Assembly: GCA_951406725.2 (NCBI GenBank) | Contig: OX597840.1 | Coordinates: 13,516,001 to 13,580,000 of the forward strand | DNA: 64,000 nt | Direction: 5' to 3' | Origin: Octopus vulgaris | Taxonomy: Eukaryota | Part shown: piece by piece, positions 2,030 through 62,511 of the stretch | Layout of the letters: each line of letters opens with the position of its first letter | How positions within the stretch are numbered: the stretch's first letter is position 1 | Program-made: the position numbers and the translations under genes | Notes under the pieces: model-generated | Told to the model about the DNA's origin: nothing | The model's input: only the letters and a program-made list of their open reading frames with translations | Databases searched by the model: none

Positions 2030-3063
2030 CTAGGTCAAAGCCAGGTCAAAAAACAAAGGGCTATATGTATCATAGTGTGTGTGTTGTTTGTAGTGTGTGT
2101 GGCGTAACCTAGTACGTGTGTGCTTGTACGTGCGTGTGTGTGTGTAGGGGGATGTATATGTGGGTTCATTTGTGTGAGAGTGTATGTGTGTGCGAGTATG
2201 TGTGCGTTTGTATGTGTTTGTGTGTATGTGTGCGTGCGCGGATAGGTGTATATTGTGTATGTATATCTGTCGGTGTGTATGTGAGTTTGTGTGTGTTTGT
2301 ACGCGTGTGTGTGTGTGTATATATATGTAAATGTGTGTGTGTGTGTGTGTGTGCGTGTGTGTGTACGTGCGTGCGAGTGAATGTATGTATATATGTGTGC
2401 GTGTGTGTACAATGTAGGGGCTTATATGTGTGTTTATATGTGTGTGTATGTATGTGTTTGTGTGTGTGTATGTATGTATGTATATGTATGTGTGTATGTA
2501 TGTATGTATGTGTGTATGTGTGTGTGTATGTGTGTATGCATGCGTGTGTGTATGTATGTATGTGTGTATGTGTGTGTATATGTGTGTATGTATGTATGTA
2601 TGTGTGTGTGTGTATGTGTGTGTGTATGTATGTATGTACGTACTATGTATGTATGTGTGTGTGTATGTATGTATGTATGTAGGTATGTGTGTATGTATGT
2701 ATTTTTGCATGCGTGTATGTGTGTATGTGCGTGTGTGTACATATGTATGTTTATGTATGTGTGTATGTATTTATGTATGTAGTGTATGTATGTGTGTGTG
2801 TATGTATGTATGTGTGCATGCGTGTATGTGTGCATGTGTGTGTATGCATGTATGTATATATATGTGTGTGTGTGTCTGTGTGTATGTATGTATATGTGTG
2901 TGTATGTATGTGCGTATGTATGTATGTGTGTGCATGTGTGTGTATGTATGTATGTATGTATGTGCATGTGTGTAAGTTTGTGTGTATGTATGTATGTATG
3001 TACGTGTGTGTGTATGTATGTGTGTGTGTGTATGTATGTGTGTATGTATGTATGTGTGCGTGC

Positions 3064-3099
<36 letters not shown>

Positions 3100-4456
3100 A
3101 TATGTATGTTTGTGTATGTATGTATCTATGTATGTATGTGTGTTTGTATGTGTGTATATATGTATGTATGTGTGTATGCGTGTGTGTGTGTGTAAGTGTG
3201 TATGTATGTGTGTGTATGTAAGTGTGTGTGTATGTATGTATGGACGGGTGTATGTGTCTAAGTGTGTGTGTGTATGTGTATGTGTATGTATGTATATGTA
3301 CGCGTGTGTGTATGTATGTATGTGTGTATAGTATGTGTGTGTGTATGTATGTATGTGTGCATGCGTGTATATGTGCATGTGTGTGTCTGTATGTATGCAT
3401 GTATATGTATGTGTGTGTGTATGTATATGTGTCTATGTATGTATGTGTGTATGTATGTGTGTATGTGTGTGTATGTATGTGTGTGTATATGTATGTATGT
3501 ATGTAAGTGTGTGTGTATGTATGTGTGTATGTGTGTGTGTGTGTGTGTGTATGTGTGTATGTATGTGTGTTGTATGTATGTATGTGTGTGTACGTGTGTG
3601 TATATGTATGTGTGTATGTATGTATGTGTGTGTGTATGTGTGTGTGTATGTGTGTGTGTATGTATGTGTGTATTTGTGTATGTGTGTGTGTATGTATGTA
3701 TGTATATGTATGGGTGTGTATGTGTGTATGTATGTGTTTGTGCGTATGTGTGTGTATGTATGTTTGTGTGTGTGTGTGTATCTGTGTATATATGTGTGTT
3801 GTATGTATGTATGTATGCATGTGTGTGTACGTGTGTGTATGTATGCATGTATGTATGTGTGTGTATGTATGTGTGCTTGCGTGTGTGTGTGGGTATGTGT
3901 GTGTATGTATGTGTGTATGTATATGTATGTGTGTGTATGTATGTATGTGTGTATGTATGTGTGTGTGTGAATGTATGTATGTGTGCATATGTGTATGTGT
4001 GTGTGTATGTATGTGTGTGTATGTATGTATAAATGTATGTATGTATGTATGAATGTATGTATGTATGTATGTGTGCGTGTGTGTGTATGTATGTATGTAT
4101 GTATGAATGTATCTATGTATGTATTATGTGTGTGTACATATGTATGTGTGTGTGTGAATGTATACGTGTGGGGGGGTTTGGAGTTGTGTGGGCGTAAGGT
4201 ACATGTGCGTGTGTGCGCTTACGTGCGTGTATCTGTGCGTCCCAGCTAGGTGTTTATAGGAGTGTGCGTATCTGTATGAGTATTGTCCCTGGTGTGTGTG
4301 CACGGGCATGTGTGTGTGTGCACGTGGGTGTGTGTGGGTGTGTGTATGGGTGTGGAAGTATGTGTGCGTACATGTGCATGTACGTTGTGTGTGTGTGGTG
4401 TGTTGGGAGTAGGTGTGTTCGTGGGTACGTGAGTATGTGTGTGTGTGTGACTGCAT
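2030..4456. repeat. Compound (TG)n/(TATG)n microsatellite, probably the 3' UTR of the adjacent PLE
   Basis: About 2.4 kb of alternating purine-pyrimidine repeats just downstream of the PLE ORF stop at 4556. Confidence 0.9.
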
Positions 4457-11515: not shown

Positions 11516-11612
<97 letters not shown>

Positions 11613-11709
11613 TGTTTAGTTAGTGTGATGTAAATTAGTTTGGTTATGTAGACAACGTTCTCTGTAGCTCAGTTAATTAAATATGCGATAAAGTTCTTAA
11701 AATGTTTCC

Positions 11710-11876
11710 TTAACTCCTGATAAAAGCTTGTGGAAATCGTTCTTCACTGTTGACAATCTTTTCACATTCCATCATAAAATCATAAGCGATTCTCTCACTG
11801 ACAACAGAATCATTCTTGTAATCTTCATGATTTCTTACAAACTGTCTTGTCCATTGGGCCATTGTCATTATCTTTC
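11710..11876 (-). CDS. GCLC: GCLC-like terminal coding exon
   Basis: Acceptor tcttacAG. Encodes (G)KIMTMAQWTRQFVRNHEDYKNDSVVSERIAYDFMMECEKIVNSEERFPQAFIRS-stop, matching GELMT.A.W.R.F...HPDYK.DSV. Confidence 0.94.
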
Positions 11877-12061
11877 CTGTAAGATAAAAATAAATTAGAA
11901 TAATAAATAATTCGTTTTTCATTTCAGATGGAAATTATTTGGTGTATTCTGTAACAATATCCTGGCTTCGTCAAATGAGGTACAAATAGATAAAGCCCTA
12001 ATAGTTTTAGCAGTGATAATTGTTTCTACGAAGCTTACAAAGAATAAGTCTTGGGGTCGAT

Positions 12062-12146
12062 TTGTTCGACGCTTTAAGGTGTTGTTCGACCCTTTAAGGT
12101 GTTGTTCGACCCTTTAAGGTGTTGTTCGACCCTTTAAGGTGTTGCT
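12062..12146. repeat. 20-bp tandem repeat (tttaaggtgttgttcgaccc) x ~4 within a SINE-like repeat
   Basis: Directly visible tandem units. Confidence 0.85.
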
Positions 12147-19560: not shown

Positions 19561-19615
<55 letters not shown>

Positions 19616-20633
19616 AAAAATTAATGAGTGCGTGCGTTTTCAATCATATGTGTGTTTGTGTGTATAAAATCCCGTGGTTGTTTGTCGACAACTTTTTGTG
19701 AAGGTGCATACCACAGTGGTTAAGTGTGGGACTTATATTCGGGATGCTAGTTCAATTCCCGGACTGGGCTTTCTTTTTGTTTCACGTTGCTCCAGTTCCC
19801 TCAGCTGCAGAAATGAGTTGCGATGTCACTGGTGCCAAACTGTATCGGCCCCTTTAGCCTTTCCCATGGATAACATCGGTGACGTGGAGAAGGGAATCTG
19901 GTATGCATGGGTGACGCCTGGTCTTACATGAACAACCTTGCCCAGACAGTTGCCTCAGACGGGAACTTTCTAGGTGCAATGCAATGGTCATTCGCGACCA
20001 AAAACGGTCTTTACTATATGTGTATGCGTCTCTCTGTGTGTGTATGTGTGTGTGTGTTTTGTCTTCTAGCTTCAGTCATTTGACAGCGGCCATGCTGGAG
20101 CACTACCTTGGTGAATTTCTGTGGAATCAAACAACATTAGCACTTTTTAAAGCCTCGCACTTATTCTATCAGTCCTTTTGCCGATCTAATAAGTTACATG
20201 GATGTAAACGCACCAACACTGGATGTCAAGTGGTGGGGGGACAAACACAGACACACATACGACGGGCTTCTTTTAGTTTCCGTCTACCAAATCCTCTCAC
20301 GTAGCTTTGGTTGACCCGAGTTTATAGAAGACACTTTCAAAATGCCACGCAGTGGGACTGAACCTAGAACCATGTGATTGGGAAGCAAGCTTGGACATTT
20401 CTATTGCATGGGAGATAATCTTCTTTGTGTAGTAAACGCGATATTTTCCTTAATTTTAAACATTTGGATTTTAATTGTTAATGGAATGATGGACATATAT
20501 TATATAAATATCGATTATGGAAACCTATGTCGAATTTTTATTTAAATAAATACTTTCAACAATGAGTTTTAAGGTTGAATGTTTCTAATAACATTTGTTT
20601 AATATTGATGAAAACAAATGAGAATCGTCTTAC

Positions 20634-20751
20634 CTGCAGCTTTGTCTGAGAGAAATTTCAGGTATTGCATTATTTTAGGTCTTTTACTGGAATCGTAGTC
20701 AACATGATCAAGATATTTGTGTATGAGAGGAATTAAACCAGGGAAATCATC
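20634..20751 (-). CDS. GCLC: GCLC-like exon
   Basis: Acceptor ctcaacAG, donor GTaaga. Encodes DDFPGLIPLIHKYLDHVDYDSSKRPKIMQYLKFLSDKAA(G), with the FPGLIP motif. Confidence 0.94.
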
Positions 20752-21900
20752 CTGTTGAGAATAGAATCAAAAGGATTGGAAATAGTTTGAGTTTTTCTGT
20801 TGGAGATGTTGACCAAAGAAAATTTCATTATATAATCTGGAATATATTTATGGCAGTCTTTGACCCCGCTTTTAATGAAACTATGATGATTTCTAACATA
20901 AAATGTGGTGAATCATTAAAACACTAGAGAGAAGACTAACGATGAATTGTAGAAAATTATGACGAGGAAAATTAGTGATGTGTGTAGATGAGAGGGAGCA
21001 AATAAGGGAAATTATCCTGTTGGCAATAGAAGCAAAATAATCAAAAATAGTTTCAGTTTTCTGATGGATATATTGACCAAATGGTTATAAAATTTGCTGA
21101 TATTTTTTGTGAAGGAAATATCTGAAAAACTGAAGCAGAAATAAGAAAAATTTCATGATGTTAATTTAGGATATTTTTATGACATTCTTTGACATCTGTC
21201 CCTTTTAATAAAATTATGATGATTTCTAACATACAGACAAAGCCATAAAGCTTGGGGTGTCACAGTGAGATGGGTGTTAGAAAGAGAGAGAAAGAAATAG
21301 TATGGTAGAAGGGACAAACAAATCTCTTTGGAACCATTTCATCTCTACAATTGAACCATTCTGCTTAATCCATGATTTCATGGAAGAGTTTAATAACCAC
21401 AATTGTCATGCAGATTCTTCATTCCTCAGAGTAATTGGAACTTATAGAACAATCTAGAATCTTTTCTATAGACTATTTCTTATTGAAAAAATCATTACCA
21501 ATTTCTTTGGATTAAGAATTTTGTGTGGACATTGATGTGTTTCACAAGTTCCTGAGGTATCCAGGGCATATTCTATTGTCACCATATGTCGATCAGTGCT
21601 TTATATACACACACACAAAGACACACACACTCACCCCATCCTAACCTCTAAAGCCAATCCCCCAAATCATTGATGCTTGAAGGAGAGACAAAAAGGATAA
21701 ATTCTTTTCAGTTCCACATTACTCCTCCTTTCCCCCACCCAAACACACCTACAGTGTCCCTTGAAATAAATAATATTCTTTTACGTTAACACAACATGGT
21801 GGACAGGTCAGTTTTAGCTTCCCTACTATTATAATGTAAACCTTTTTGAACTCATAATATTCTGTGCGTGTATACCAATATTCCACTGAACTTTTTAATA

Positions 21901-26380: not shown

Positions 26381-26451
26381 CTTTCCATTCATGATTTCAT
26401 TTAAAGTCATCAGGGAGTAAATTTCATGGGTTACCTCACAACTGGTAAATT
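26381..26451 (-). CDS. GCLC: GCLC-like exon
   Basis: Acceptor tgtcaactAG, donor GTaaga. Encodes (E)FTSCEVTHEIYSLMTLNEIMNGK, matching Y.LMSID.I.NGK. 71 nt, phases fit. Confidence 0.9.
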
Positions 26452-29315: not shown

Positions 29316-29394
29316 CATTTTGAACTTCTCTGAAGTGAAACTTTTCTGTATTAGTGGAATCCCGCTTTTGTGCTGATGTGAAGTTTTCATCAAC
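29316..29394 (-). CDS. GCLC: GCLC-like exon
   Basis: Acceptor ctcttcaAG, donor GTaaga. Encodes [26 protein letters not shown](E), matching VDENM..AQKRDA....FYFR. Confidence 0.93.
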
Positions 29395-36694: not shown

Positions 36695-37095
36695 ATCATC
36701 ATCATTGTTCGACCGTGGTCGAGACAATGGAATTTACCATGCTACGCCAGACTTCATGGTCCATCATGGCATTACAGAGGTCCTGTTGCTGGATGCCTAT
36801 ATCCCTGGAGATTACATCAGGGTAGGAGAGTGTGCGCCCTCTGGTATATCGAGTAGATGGCTTCCAGAGGAGAAGAGTAGAAATTACCTCTTTTTCAGCT
36901 CTACAACAATGTCCAGCAAACTGGACTCTCCTACCTTTCACAAGAGATGACACAGGTGGTAGTTTCCCATATATTTGCATTTTGGTTGGATGGCGCTTCC
37001 ACGAGAGATTTTGAGTTCTCATAAGGAGGCGAGTGTAAGTTCCATCCAACCACCTCTCAAGCTTCTTTGATAACGTCCAGGTTTCTGAGCCAGTT
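36695..37095 (-). mobile_element. RTE-like LINE 3' fragment
   Basis: Encodes GSETWTLSKKLE..LDGTYTRLLM...RRVQFAGHC, with a (TGA)n tail. Same family as 57975-59152. Confidence 0.85.
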
Positions 37096-37577
37096 GTCAC
37101 ACCATGATATATCAGCCCTATTTTATGGGACTGAGACATAGTTATACATAAGACACACTAAAGGAGGTTCAGATATTCACCAAGAAATAACTCTCGATTA
37201 AAAGGTTGAAGAAAATCAGAGAGACAACTTTCTAGGAGGAAACTCCACAGATCCCCATTGGCATGGAGATCAAACGAAGAGTGTAGCACTGGATTGGATA
37301 CACCATCACAAGACACCATCCTGGGATCACAAACTAGTCCCTCAGATGGAACCTCCTGAGGAAAAAGAGACAAAGGGCAGGGCACTCCTTACAATGTCAT
37401 CGAGAGAAAGAAGTAAGATCTAGATGGAGTTGAGCCAATTGGATAGAAGGCCCAGGACAAGAATAAGGGAAGGGAAGCCGCCCTAGGAGGGGTTAAAAGC
37501 CTGGGCAAGTGACGGCCCACATGGGTGCAGTTGCATCAATTTGTTTTATGCTTATCGTACAGAAAATCAATATTTAC

Positions 37578-37682
37578 CTTTGTTATTGGGATCAAAAGGT
37601 TCAGTTTGAAGGTAACAATGGCTCGGGTAAGAAGGACCATAAATACAACAAGGGCAGCGTTTTCAAAGTCGGTCAATTGAAG
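37578..37682 (-). CDS. GCLC: GCLC-like exon
   Basis: Acceptor tttccAG, donor GTaaat. Encodes [35 protein letters not shown]. 105 nt. Confidence 0.96.
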
Positions 37683-39902: not shown

Positions 39903-39989
39903 CTCCATTGTTCTGAATTCTATTTTCCATCCAGATTTCTCATCAGGAAGTTTCAGTTTCAGGTTTTGCCAATTACTACCAATGACGGC
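39903..39989 (-). CDS. GCLC: GCLC-like exon
   Basis: Acceptor ttttaAG, donor GTaaca. Encodes AVIGSNWQNLKLKLPDEKSGWKIEFRTME (NWQ...GW..EFR.ME motif). 87 nt. Confidence 0.93.
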
Positions 39990-45996: not shown

Positions 45997-46109
45997 CTGA
46001 ATGTGATCTGTATCATTCATTATGTCTTGATCGATCTTCTCTTTGTATAAAGCGATTGGGTCTCTGACCAGGAGTTGGGCAACGTATTTGGACATCATTT
46101 CATCAACAC
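45997..46109 (-). CDS. GCLC: GCLC-like exon
   Basis: Acceptor aatcAG, donor GTaaat. Encodes (G)VDEMMSKYVAQLLVRDPIALYKEKIDQDIMNDTDHIQ, with the RDP motif. 113 nt. Confidence 0.93.
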
Positions 46110-48385: not shown

Positions 48386-48524
48386 CTTCAGCTTTCAGTA
48401 ATTCATACTGCTCATGGTCATAAGTGAAATCATAATCATTATAAAATTGGTCACTCACAGAAAGGTAACTGCTTACTGTATCATAACGGGATTTCTTCAT
48501 CAAAATGTTACCATTTGTCAAAGG
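48386..48524 (-). CDS. GCLC: GCLC-like exon
   Basis: Acceptor ccttttAG, donor GTattt. Encodes PLTNGNILMKKSRYDTVSSYLSVSDQFYNDYDFTYDHEQYELLKAE(G), with the KSRYD motif. 139 nt. Confidence 0.95.
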
Positions 48525-51425: not shown

Positions 51426-51542
51426 TTCTAAACCCTGTTCTTGTCTGGTACGGTCATCACAAGACTGAGAAATAGTACACCAGCGACAGTCAGTATCAGA
51501 CAAAAGTCCTCGATAAACTGGAGCCGCTGCTGTTAGAGCTAA
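51426..51542 (-). CDS. GCLC: GCLC-like exon
   Basis: Acceptor tttccAG, donor GTgagt. Encodes [39 protein letters not shown], 39 codons. Confidence 0.95.
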
Positions 51543-54665: not shown

Positions 54666-54883
54666 CATAATTGGAGTAAGAGGTACCAGATTGTCATAAA
54701 GGTAAGCAGCTTCTTTTATATCAGCAGCTTGAAATGTAACTTGGAGAGAACAACAACCAGCCCCAAATGTGAAGGAATCCATGTAAATATAGCCTGGTTT
54801 CAATGATTTCTTCATCTCTTTATTGTCTCCATATTCAGACAAGTCTTCCCCGTATGGCATCATGGTATTTTTATCTTTATAAA
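54666..54883 (-). CDS. GCLC: GCLC-like exon
   Basis: Acceptor ttgtttcAG, donor GTgggt. Encodes YKDKNTMMPYGEDL...IYMDSFTFGAGCCSLQVTFQAADIKEAAYLYDNLVPLTPIM, the GCLC YMD..FG.G...LQVTFQA motif. Confidence 0.95.
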
Positions 54884-57438: not shown

Positions 57439-57497
57439 GCGGTACATTGGTTGCAGTTCTTTCTTTCCTTCTGTATACCATATTTTTAATTCGATCT
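57439..57497 (-). CDS. GCLC: GCLC-like exon (59 nt)
   Basis: Acceptor ttcccaatcaAG, donor GTgagt. Encodes (R)DRIKNMVYRRKERTATNVP(L), aligning to TLTRNIRHRRGEKVVINVPI. Phases fit both neighbouring exons. Confidence 0.85.
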
Positions 57498-59169: not shown

Positions 59170-59915
59170 TACTTTCCCTGATTATCTATGACTTCCTTCC
59201 ATCTATTTACAAGCTTTTTAATCCCATCAATGTAAAACTCTTTTGGTTTTTAAAGCAAAGAACTCTGAAATGTCAGTTTCGACCTCCTCCTGGCTTGCAA
59301 AAGTTATGTCCCCCAAATGATTCTGTAAACTACAAAACAAATGGTAGTCTGAAGGAACAAGGTCAGGAGAATAAGGTGGATGACGAATTTTTTCCCAACC
59401 AAGCTCTTTGATCTTCTGTGATGTGATCTTTGCAGTGTGGGGTCGCGCATTGTCTTGATGAAACATCACTCCCTTTCGATTCACTAAAGTGGGTCTTTTT
59501 TCTTCAAAGCTTGGTTCAAATGCTCTAATTGCTGACAGTAGACTTGAGCATTGATTGTTGCATTAGGTGGTAACAATTCAAAGTGAATTACTCCTTTGCA
59601 ATCCCACCAGATAGAGAAAAGAACCTTTTTCTCATGAAGTTCCCTTCTCAGTTGTGGTTGAACTTTTTCCCTTTTACCAAGCCACTGTTTACGACGTTTA
59701 ACATTTCAGTAGAAGATCCCTTTTTCATCGCCAGTTACAAGTCTATCCAAAGAGGGTGAAATGAATTTGCGAGAATGGAGAGAAGAGCAGATGTCAACTC
59801 AGGATTTGCAGTTGCTTTCGGGCAATTCATGAGGCACCTATTTTGCAAGTTTAGGAACGTTTCCGAGTTGTTGAAGATGACGATGAACCATCGTATCGTT
59901 TGAACTAAGCTTTAG
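59170..59915 (-). mobile_element. Mariner transposase remnant
   Basis: Encodes VTGDEK, LFSIWWDCKG, FHQDNARPH and HPPYSPDLVPSDYHLF (DD34D type). Confidence 0.9.
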
Positions 59916-60848: not shown

Positions 60849-62180
60849 CATCATCATCATCATCATCATTTAACGTCCGTTTTCCATGCTAGCATGGGTT
60901 GGAAGGTTCGACCGGGGTCTGGTAAACCATGGAGGCTGCACCAGGCTCTAGTCTGATTTGACAGTGTTTCTACAGCTGGATGCTCTTCCTAACGCCAGCC
61001 ACTCCATGAGTGTAGTAGGCGATTTTTACATGCCACCAGCACAGGGGCCAGAGCAGGCTGCCAAACGGCCACAATCGGTTGGTGCTTTTACGTGTCACCA
61101 ACACGGATGCCAGTCAGGCAGCGCTGGCATCTGCCACGTTCAGACGGTGCTTCATATGTGTCACTGGCACGGCTGTCTTAACTACAATTTCCATTTGAAT
61201 TTTTATTTTGATGTTGACATACTTCACTCAACAGGTCTCCTCAAGAAAGGTTAGCACAGCAGGTTGTCCTGCAAGCCCTGAACTCACTTCATTTGTCAGG
61301 TCTTCGAAGTCACAGCATATCTCCAGAGGTCTCGGTCTTTCGTCATAGCCTCTGTGAGGCTCAAAGTACGAAGGTCATGCTTGACCACCTCGTCCCATGT
61401 CTTCCTGGGTCTACCTCTAACCCGGATTCCTTCAACAGTTTGGGAGTGGCACTTCTTCACACATCTCTCCTCATCCATCCATAGTACATGACCATACCAA
61501 TGCAATCGTCTCTCCTGCATGCTGCATCCAATGTTTCTTATGCCCAACATTTCTCTCAGGGACTTACACCCTGTCATGCATGGACACTGACATTACACAT
61601 CCAGTGGATCATGCTAGCTTCATTTCTTTCAAGCCTACGCATGTCTTCTGCAGTCGCAGCCCATGTTTCACTGCCGTGAAGCATGGCAGTTCACACACAT
61701 GCATCGTACAATCTACCTTTCACTCTGAGCAAAAGACCCTTTGTCACCAGTAGGGGGAGAAGCTTCCTAAACTTTGCCCAGGCTATTCTTATTCTAGTAG
61801 TAATGCTCTCTGAGCATCCACCCCTGCAACTAACTTGGTCACCTAGGTAGCAGAAACTATCAACTACTTCTAGTTTCTCCCCAAGGAGTGTAACGGAATC
61901 TGTTTTCTGAGTATCAATGGTATCTATTGCACCTGTGCGTCTGCCACACATGAAAGATATCTTCTCGGTTAATTTTCCTTTGATATTGCTGCACCTCTTA
62001 TGTGTCCATAGTTTACACTGGGTACATCTTATGGAGTTTCTACCTACACCTTTTCTACAGCCCTTATTAACCATTCGTCAATCTCCAGTTTCCGCATCGC
62101 CCACCAGATAAGGGATTGAGGGCCCCTGTCAAAGGCTTTCTCCAAGTCCACAAAAGCTAAGTATAGGGATTTATCTTTGG
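60845..62180 (-). mobile_element. RTE-X-like LINE 3' part
   Basis: Encodes CRKGVGRNSIRCTQCKLWTHKRCS, FCYLGD, RIRIAWAKF and RLHWYGHV; (CAT)n end. Confidence 0.88.
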
Positions 62181-62206
62181 CTTTGGCTAGGTATATATTT
62201 ATATAT

Positions 62207-62241
<35 letters not shown>

Positions 62242-62394
62242 AATATCGAGAGAGAGAGAGATCAGAATTAAAATGTGGTACAGAGAAATTCAAATTCATG
62301 TTACGATCATTTCAATAAACAAATTTTTTTTTGTTCAATTATATAAAGACGTAATTGACGCAATATGTGTAAAACAGGTAATAAAATGTCATAC

Positions 62395-62511
62395 CTATAT
62401 ACAGGATGCTGGAAACACAGTGCAGCATCTGCTATGAAAACTGATTGGTGAATTTCCGTTACATGTTTGTTTGCTTCATAAGAGGGAAAAGTGAAATTAG
62501 GACAACCCAAT
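62395..62511 (-). CDS. GCLC: GCLC-like, first exon within window (upstream exons outside window)
   Basis: Acceptor ctttcAG, donor GTatga. Encodes (R)LGCPNFTFPSYEANKHVTEIHQSVFIADAALCFQHPVY(R), matching the GCLC segment RLGCPGFT...SLFFPD..I..HPRF. 117 nt, phase 2 to 2. Confidence 0.9.

Follow-up and report, generated by a model that had tools for sequence, protein, structure and literature searches.

Seven divergent glutamate–cysteine ligase-like genes with altered acceptor pockets in Octopus vulgaris

The genome of Octopus vulgaris carries seven divergent copies of the glutamate–cysteine ligase gene (GCLC) in addition to a single canonical one; to our knowledge, GCLC is normally one highly conserved gene. 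The predicted acceptor pocket is rebuilt in these copies, well beyond the signature motif, and most metal, nucleotide and glutamate ligands are retained. On balance, the seven paralogues are probably ATP/Mg-dependent gamma-glutamyl ligases for acceptors other than cysteine, with the sequenced allele of the copy studied here, A4, probably crippled by a lysine at a metal ligand (E50K; yeast Gsh1 numbering is used for active-site residues). The finding is the family, and the A4 allele is its least safe member for assay.

The sequence analysed (the window) is a stretch of 64,000 nt. A4 is a minus-strand gene of 65 kb, with 16 exons encoding 606 aa and the same exon pattern as the octopus canonical GCLC gene. 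Exons 5–16 lie in the window and exons 1–4 outside it (C27:13580385-13592718). Stops, frameshifts and broken splice sites are absent from all 16 exons. An earlier note on this DNA had reported that the exons of the window join in frame; all 12 do so over 463 codons, with AG/GT ends throughout and zero internal stops, and the CRW, DDRT, SRY and EFR motifs that it described as retained are found in the translation. CAI9741799.1, a model that is incomplete, matches the exon 7 region at 99% identity. The features of the window are as follows.

62395..62511, minus strand: exon 5 of 16, 117 nt; lid, in which canonical H-P-R-F reads H-P-V-Y
62400..62402, minus strand: Val181, which aligns with yeast Arg196 (position worked out from the exon phase)
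61299-62289 and 36705-37157, minus strand: putative ends of LINE retrotransposons, recognised by eye (Pfam matches sub-threshold or none)
59230-59705, minus strand: frameshifted remnant of a mariner-type transposase in intron 5 (Pfam Transposase_1, E 5.5e-28)
57439..57497, minus strand: exon 6, 59 nt; Arg185 in the place of yeast Leu200
54666..54883, minus strand: exon 7, 218 nt, the signature exon; A3-type contigs of presumed-RNA runs end at its boundaries
54741..54782, minus strand: signature MDSFTFGAGCCSLQ; F240, T241, A244, S248 and Q250 correspond to M258, G259, M262, C266 and Q268
51426..51542, minus strand: exon 8, 117 nt; CRW with Arg295 (R313, glutamate site), and DDRT
48386..48524, minus strand: exon 9, 139 nt; SRY with Tyr328 (Y362, glutamate carboxylate)
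45997..46109, minus strand: exon 10, 113 nt
39903..39989, minus strand: exon 11, 87 nt; remodelled loop preceding W405 (W445), then K411 (K451), E422 (E470) and R424 (R472), with Lys at the R449 and R468 positions
37578..37682, minus strand: exon 12, 105 nt
29316..29394, minus strand: exon 13, 79 nt
26381..26451, minus strand: exon 14, 71 nt
20634..20751, minus strand: exon 15, 118 nt; identical to A3 exon 15
11710..11876, minus strand: exon 16 with stop codon, 167 nt; 99% identical to the last exon of A3
2171-4156: degenerate GT microsatellite of about 2 kb in the gap between A3 and A4

The signature is read from the minus strand of exon 7 (54782..54741); it falls within a match to Pfam GCS (E 7e-13) and is therefore no chance likeness. 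Aligned without gaps to yeast Gsh1 (PDB 3IG5), it shows the changes M258F, G259T, M262A and C266S, with C264 and Q268 kept; the substitutions given in the earlier note are correct, and the alignment bears out its yeast numbering. C266S, the change that it listed for the glutamate site, carries little weight, since the Leishmania enzyme works with Ala at that position (PMC5613772) and 17 of 144 aligned representatives have a residue other than Cys. By profile and fold, A4 belongs to the eukaryotic GCLC family: its orthologue P0012 matches the complete Pfam GCS profile (PF03074; positions 1-372 of 372, 462 bits), above the curated cut-off, and the AlphaFold model of the O. sinensis orthologue (pLDDT 91.6) matches 3IG5 in Foldseek with E 3e-51 and a TM-score of 0.88.

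The single canonical GCLC gene of O. vulgaris, with the motif MDAMGFGMGCCCLQ, is on chromosome C4. A4 is accordingly a paralogue, as the earlier note had supposed, and is not the sole GCLC of this genome. A genome search with exon 1 returned exactly seven divergent copies plus the canonical gene, and all seven are on a chromosome other than that of the latter.

C27, 13.35-13.59 Mb: A1-A3 and A4 (the gene studied)
C27, 23.94 Mb: B1
C27, 36.19-36.29 Mb: C1 and C2

Fragments resembling the 3' part of C1 occur at C9:9409-13115, where the last exon appears frameshifted, and at C28:20820467-20821130. Six of the seven copies splice to full frames of 605-607 aa from 16 exons each. The exception is C2, in which one extra homopolymer base in exon 6 (C27:36279970-36280030) shifts the frame in this assembly; the frame is unbroken in its O. 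sinensis orthologue. Further peculiarities of C2 are the loss of R313 and W445 and a GC splice donor behind exon 1. The copies diverge from each other by up to about 30%, are about 53% identical to canonical GCLC, and have a C-terminus about 40 aa shorter. Residues 257-262 are unlike in each copy (SMTFAA, TKLFGL, APVFGA, SFTFGA, TPIFGV, SPTFGV, TKSFGV). A simple hydropathy scan found no hydrophobic leader in any of the seven paralogues, and a secreted, effector-like role was rejected on that ground. Exon 3 (C27:13587122-13587229; 108 nt, frame-preserving), which encodes E96 and E103, is present in this genome, but six of the 20 public gene models examined, spread over two species and three paralogues, lack it; these six may be annotation artefacts or may represent an isoform without two metal ligands. 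Searches with PF03917 and PF03199 gave no match in O. vulgaris or in the controls and are uninformative on glutathione synthetase copy number.

The active sites were compared between 109 canonical sequences (104 database matches and 5 from cephalopods) and 17 divergent ones, two of which are imperfect models. E52, Q268, K451, E470 and R472 are kept in all 17 divergent sequences, and E96 and E103 in 15, the two exceptions being models without exon 3; these seven residues are invariant across the seven paralogues. In A4, five of the six Mg-ligand positions tested (E50, E52, E96, E103, E470 and Q268, the last presumably having this role) are kept, E50 being Lys, and so are all four glutamate-site positions (E52, R313, Y362, R472). 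The Mg ligands E50/E470 and E52/E96/E103 are those of Table 3 in PMC5613772, which for the yeast enzyme gives Y362 and R472 for glutamate; the cysteine contacts in the table are limited to E96 and W445. The O. bimaculoides orthologue of A4 and 13 of the 17 divergent sequences have Phe in place of Y362.

The cysteine pocket is taken here to consist of Y97, R196, F197, L200, M258 and M262, R196 being the residue assumed to bind the cysteine carboxylate. A4 departs from this canonical pocket: R196, F197, L200, M258 and M262 read V, Y, R, F and A, and W445 is kept. All 109 canonical sequences have Arg at position 196, and none of the 17 divergent ones does (V, I, F, L or Y instead); of 149 more distant representatives, 133 have Arg there and five Lys, while four lack the residue and seven have another one. 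L200, M262, C266, N440, Q442 and R468 are altered in every divergent sequence, M258 and R449 in most, and W445 is lost in A1 and C2; A4 retains both E96 and W445. Changes near the nucleotide site are R449K, R468K and T105K. At least seven of eight divergent sequences are changed in 39 of 180 near-invariant columns, which include R449 and R468. Across the paralogues, seven pocket sites show 3.43 states against 1.65 at canonical-conserved columns (P 4e-5, an optimistic value because the site set was fixed after the alignment was seen), and ten metal/ATP/Glu sites show 1.3. The pocket remodelling proposed in the earlier note is thus supported, and its predicted extent is greater than was noticed there, taking in R196, L200, N440/Q442 and R449/R468 and a family of seven copies.

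Purifying selection acts on the divergent family, with dN/dS about 0.3. The 21 pairwise comparisons gave dN/dS values of 0.21-0.43, those of A4 with the other paralogues lying at 0.25-0.34, and omega under model M0 is 0.29; together with the intact frame and splice sites, these values rule out a classical pseudogene, the decayed state that the earlier note had considered for this gene. M2a is marginally favoured over M1a (p 0.04), with the codon equivalent to M258 as the top candidate (NEB posterior 0.96), and the evidence for positive selection at this site is no more than suggestive, because gene conversion can bias site tests and inflate this comparison. A3 lies tail-to-tail with A4 just before the window, and exons 15-16 of the two genes are 99–100% identical, introns included. 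Exon 15 of A4 falls within a 1.5-kb tract that is 97.6% identical to A3, probably through gene conversion, and at window positions 11595-12070 and 19575-21062 identity to A3 is 98-99% over the 3' exons and adjoining intron. Exon 10 is 98% identical between A2 and A4, as is exon 11 between A2 and A3, a mosaic pattern that suggests repeated gene conversion among the paralogues.

Orthologues of A4 are present in O. sinensis (XP_036370436.1; 595 of 606 residues identical) and O. bimaculoides, and the divergent clade spans three Octopus species and Argonauta, with one member in Argonauta hians. The public models of A4 in O. vulgaris and O. bimaculoides are incomplete. The best 120 of 1130 matches include no divergent copy from squid or cuttlefish; coverage of decapodiforms is thin there, since no named decapodiform protein of any kind is included. 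The only Aplysia match among these 120 is canonical, with no divergent copy. All trees were quick ones. In them the divergent octopod clade groups with the canonical GCLC of cephalopods, its stem measuring about one substitution per site, and the clade shares 15 cephalopod-only states as against six contrary ones. When more long branches were included this grouping was lost, with weak support, and the AU test does not reject an origin shared with the copies of Mytilus and Tachypleus (p-AU 0.19). Among 10 of the 149 representatives that were looked up, seven GCLC-like proteins with rebuilt pockets could be named, from Mytilus, Tachypleus, two mites, Apostichopus, Lingula and Aspergillus (P0156, P0160, P0162, P0165, P0167, P0176, P0262), so that pocket rebuilding is a recurring theme.

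The allele of A4 in the assembly departs from its relatives at position 50. Exon 1 ends with TGG GGC GAC AAG before the GT donor, which gives Lys50; the codon (C27:13592569-13592571) is 12.6 kb past the window end, and the change is a single CpG transition. This position is Glu in the six other paralogues, both A4 orthologues, all 109 canonical enzymes and 118 of 119 aligned representatives. A near-identical DNA contig of run X19 has Glu50, and was the sole informative contig in the four of 24 runs examined at exon 1; a search for short fragments returned no O. vulgaris allele at codon 50. With a heterozygosity of 1.22% given for O. vulgaris in PMC10700109, E50K is plausible as a polymorphism, and it may also be fixed or an assembly error. 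Lysine at a Mg ligand would probably abolish the activity of A4. The earlier note had called the enzyme intact, which is true of the reading frame; because of E50K, the word fits the O. sinensis orthologue better than the A4 allele. The note also had the protein still binding ATP and glutamate; because of E50K, this allele may not bind Mg-ATP productively.

Contigs from four presumed-RNA runs extend over exon 7 and break off at its ends. The loose ends of those from X4 and X15 best match exons 6 and 8 of A3 (26-30 of 30 bases), which indicates spliced transcripts of the family. In the four of 24 runs examined at exon 7, the contigs spanning the motif derive from other paralogues (best match A3 in the fourth run, with one low-depth contig unassigned) and are neutral on A4; no RNA run was among those listed for A4. 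The depth of such contigs is an unreliable guide to expression.

Ligation to acceptors other than cysteine is proposed because the catalytic core is kept, the pocket appears rebuilt in a copy-specific manner, and canonical GCL is already broad, accepting amino acids besides cysteine (PMC10741565). In such enzymes, Mg-ATP would phosphorylate the gamma-carboxyl of glutamate as in GCLC, using E50, E52, E96, E103, Q268, K451, E470 and R472, and an amine would then attack the gamma-glutamyl phosphate. The polar pocket groups (R196, N440, Q442) have mostly given way to hydrophobic or smaller residues and M262 to Ala, Val, Leu, Thr or Gly, for which reason the favoured candidate acceptor is a hydrophobic amine without an alpha-carboxylate, an assignment that is tentative and, taken overall, somewhat doubtful; or else the acceptor may be a bulky hydrophobic amino acid. 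Preferences would differ between the paralogues. R449K, R468K, T105K and Y362F could lower activity instead of redirecting it. Two points weigh against the amine version: reports of gamma-glutamyl conjugation of monoamines come from gastropods and annelids (PMC8155685, PMC9547800), and a review (PMC6454038) places it in gastropods, set apart from cephalopods. A wider claim, rather unlikely as a whole, is that the octopod copies form a panel of gamma-glutamyl-amine synthetases for different biogenic or dietary amines and that the horseshoe crab, mussel, mite and sea cucumber copies are the missing genes of EC 6.3.2.18 type.

It is improbable that the paralogues still form gamma-Glu-Cys and merely do so with altered kinetics, for example escaping glutathione feedback and supplying extra glutathione in one tissue. 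Glutathione inhibits GCL via this same pocket, a point in favour of such retuning. So are the two tabulated cysteine contacts of the yeast enzyme, E96 and W445, both of which A4 has, and the function of the Leishmania enzyme with Ala at C266 (contacts and Leishmania residue from PMC5613772). A single shared product, however, would not favour 3.4 states per pocket site over seven copies, and W445 is gone from A1 and C2 and R196 from all. Little credence is likewise given to a family that is non-catalytic or barely so, whose members would bind ligands, regulate canonical GCL or serve as bulk proteins in the manner of lengsin, a lens protein derived from glutamine synthetase. A pseudoenzyme would account for the 39 changed columns, R449 and R468 among them, for E50K in A4, for the missing R313 of C2 and for the six public models that skip E96 and E103 with exon 3, yet it would be expected to shed the seven metal, ATP and catalytic residues, which are invariant over copies as much as 30% apart.

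A4 alone could also be a redundant copy decaying in O. vulgaris, whatever its sisters do, and this too seems quite unlikely. The near-universal Glu at position 50 lends it some force, as do the 11 residues at which A4 differs from its O. sinensis orthologue (three to seven for A1-A3, one for the canonical gene) and its incomplete public models in O. vulgaris and O. bimaculoides. Against decay, a 65-kb gene has kept every splice site and the frame of 16 exons as well as a low dN/dS relative to its paralogues, and E50K is a single CpG transition, with Glu in the X19 contig, so that polymorphism or assembly error is possible. Gamma-glutamyl ligation to acceptors other than cysteine is the reading preferred here for the family.

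Judged by title and opening of the abstract, none of the papers listed in the literature searches deals with the octopod GCLC expansion. The main text of PMC7656900, PMC9635652 and PMC10700109 contains no mention of it, nor do the supplements searched of PMC7656900, PMC9795677 and PMC9068888; the 2015 octopus genome paper, subscription journals, and bioRxiv and other supplements were outside this scope and could list it. Seven selected copies with differing pockets would imply undescribed gamma-glutamyl metabolites in octopods. They would also provide natural specificity variants of the eukaryotic GCL pocket, yeast Gsh1 being the one solved sequence that was found for it, as well as clonable candidates for the gamma-glutamyl-amine activity of invertebrates, known by assay since 1982. 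Since databases name all copies 'glutamate--cysteine ligase', transcriptomic studies of oxidative stress in octopus may be counting non-glutathione genes.

Compared with canonical GCLC, the octopod copies share the Pfam GCS domain (462 bits), the predicted fold (TM 0.88), the exon pattern of the octopus gene and, in the A4 orthologues, the Mg, Glu and ATP ligands. They differ at R196, L200, M258, M262, C266, N440, Q442, R449 and R468, in their number and shorter C-terminus, in having only about 53% identity to it and, for A4, in E50K. The Mytilus, Tachypleus, mite, Apostichopus, Lingula and Aspergillus copies resemble them in length (about 575-620 aa), in keeping the metal and catalytic residues and in a rebuilt Met pocket, and the Tachypleus motif is close to the octopod one (M262T and C266S); most of these, in contrast, have Arg or Lys at R196 and Arg at R449/R468. 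We know of no gene assigned to the gamma-glutamylhistamine synthetase of Aplysia (EC 6.3.2.18). That molluscan enzyme is comparable in its ATP-dependent ligation of Glu to a carboxylate-free amine (PMC9547800), but it is a class defined by activity alone, and the reports of it concern gastropods and annelids rather than cephalopods (PMC8155685, PMC6454038). Among systems already worked out, the glutathione-synthetase-like effectors of cyst nematodes (Lilley et al. 2018, PMC5919673) come nearest. There, a single-copy housekeeping gene of the glutathione pathway has likewise expanded, with one substrate subsite hypervariable, the ATP site and catalytic Arg kept, and a new substrate inferred. The nematode proteins are of the second pathway step, have an ATP-grasp fold and signal peptides, and have been shown to lack the canonical activity (PMC5919673), whereas the octopod copies are, by sequence, first-step enzymes with no hydrophobic leader.
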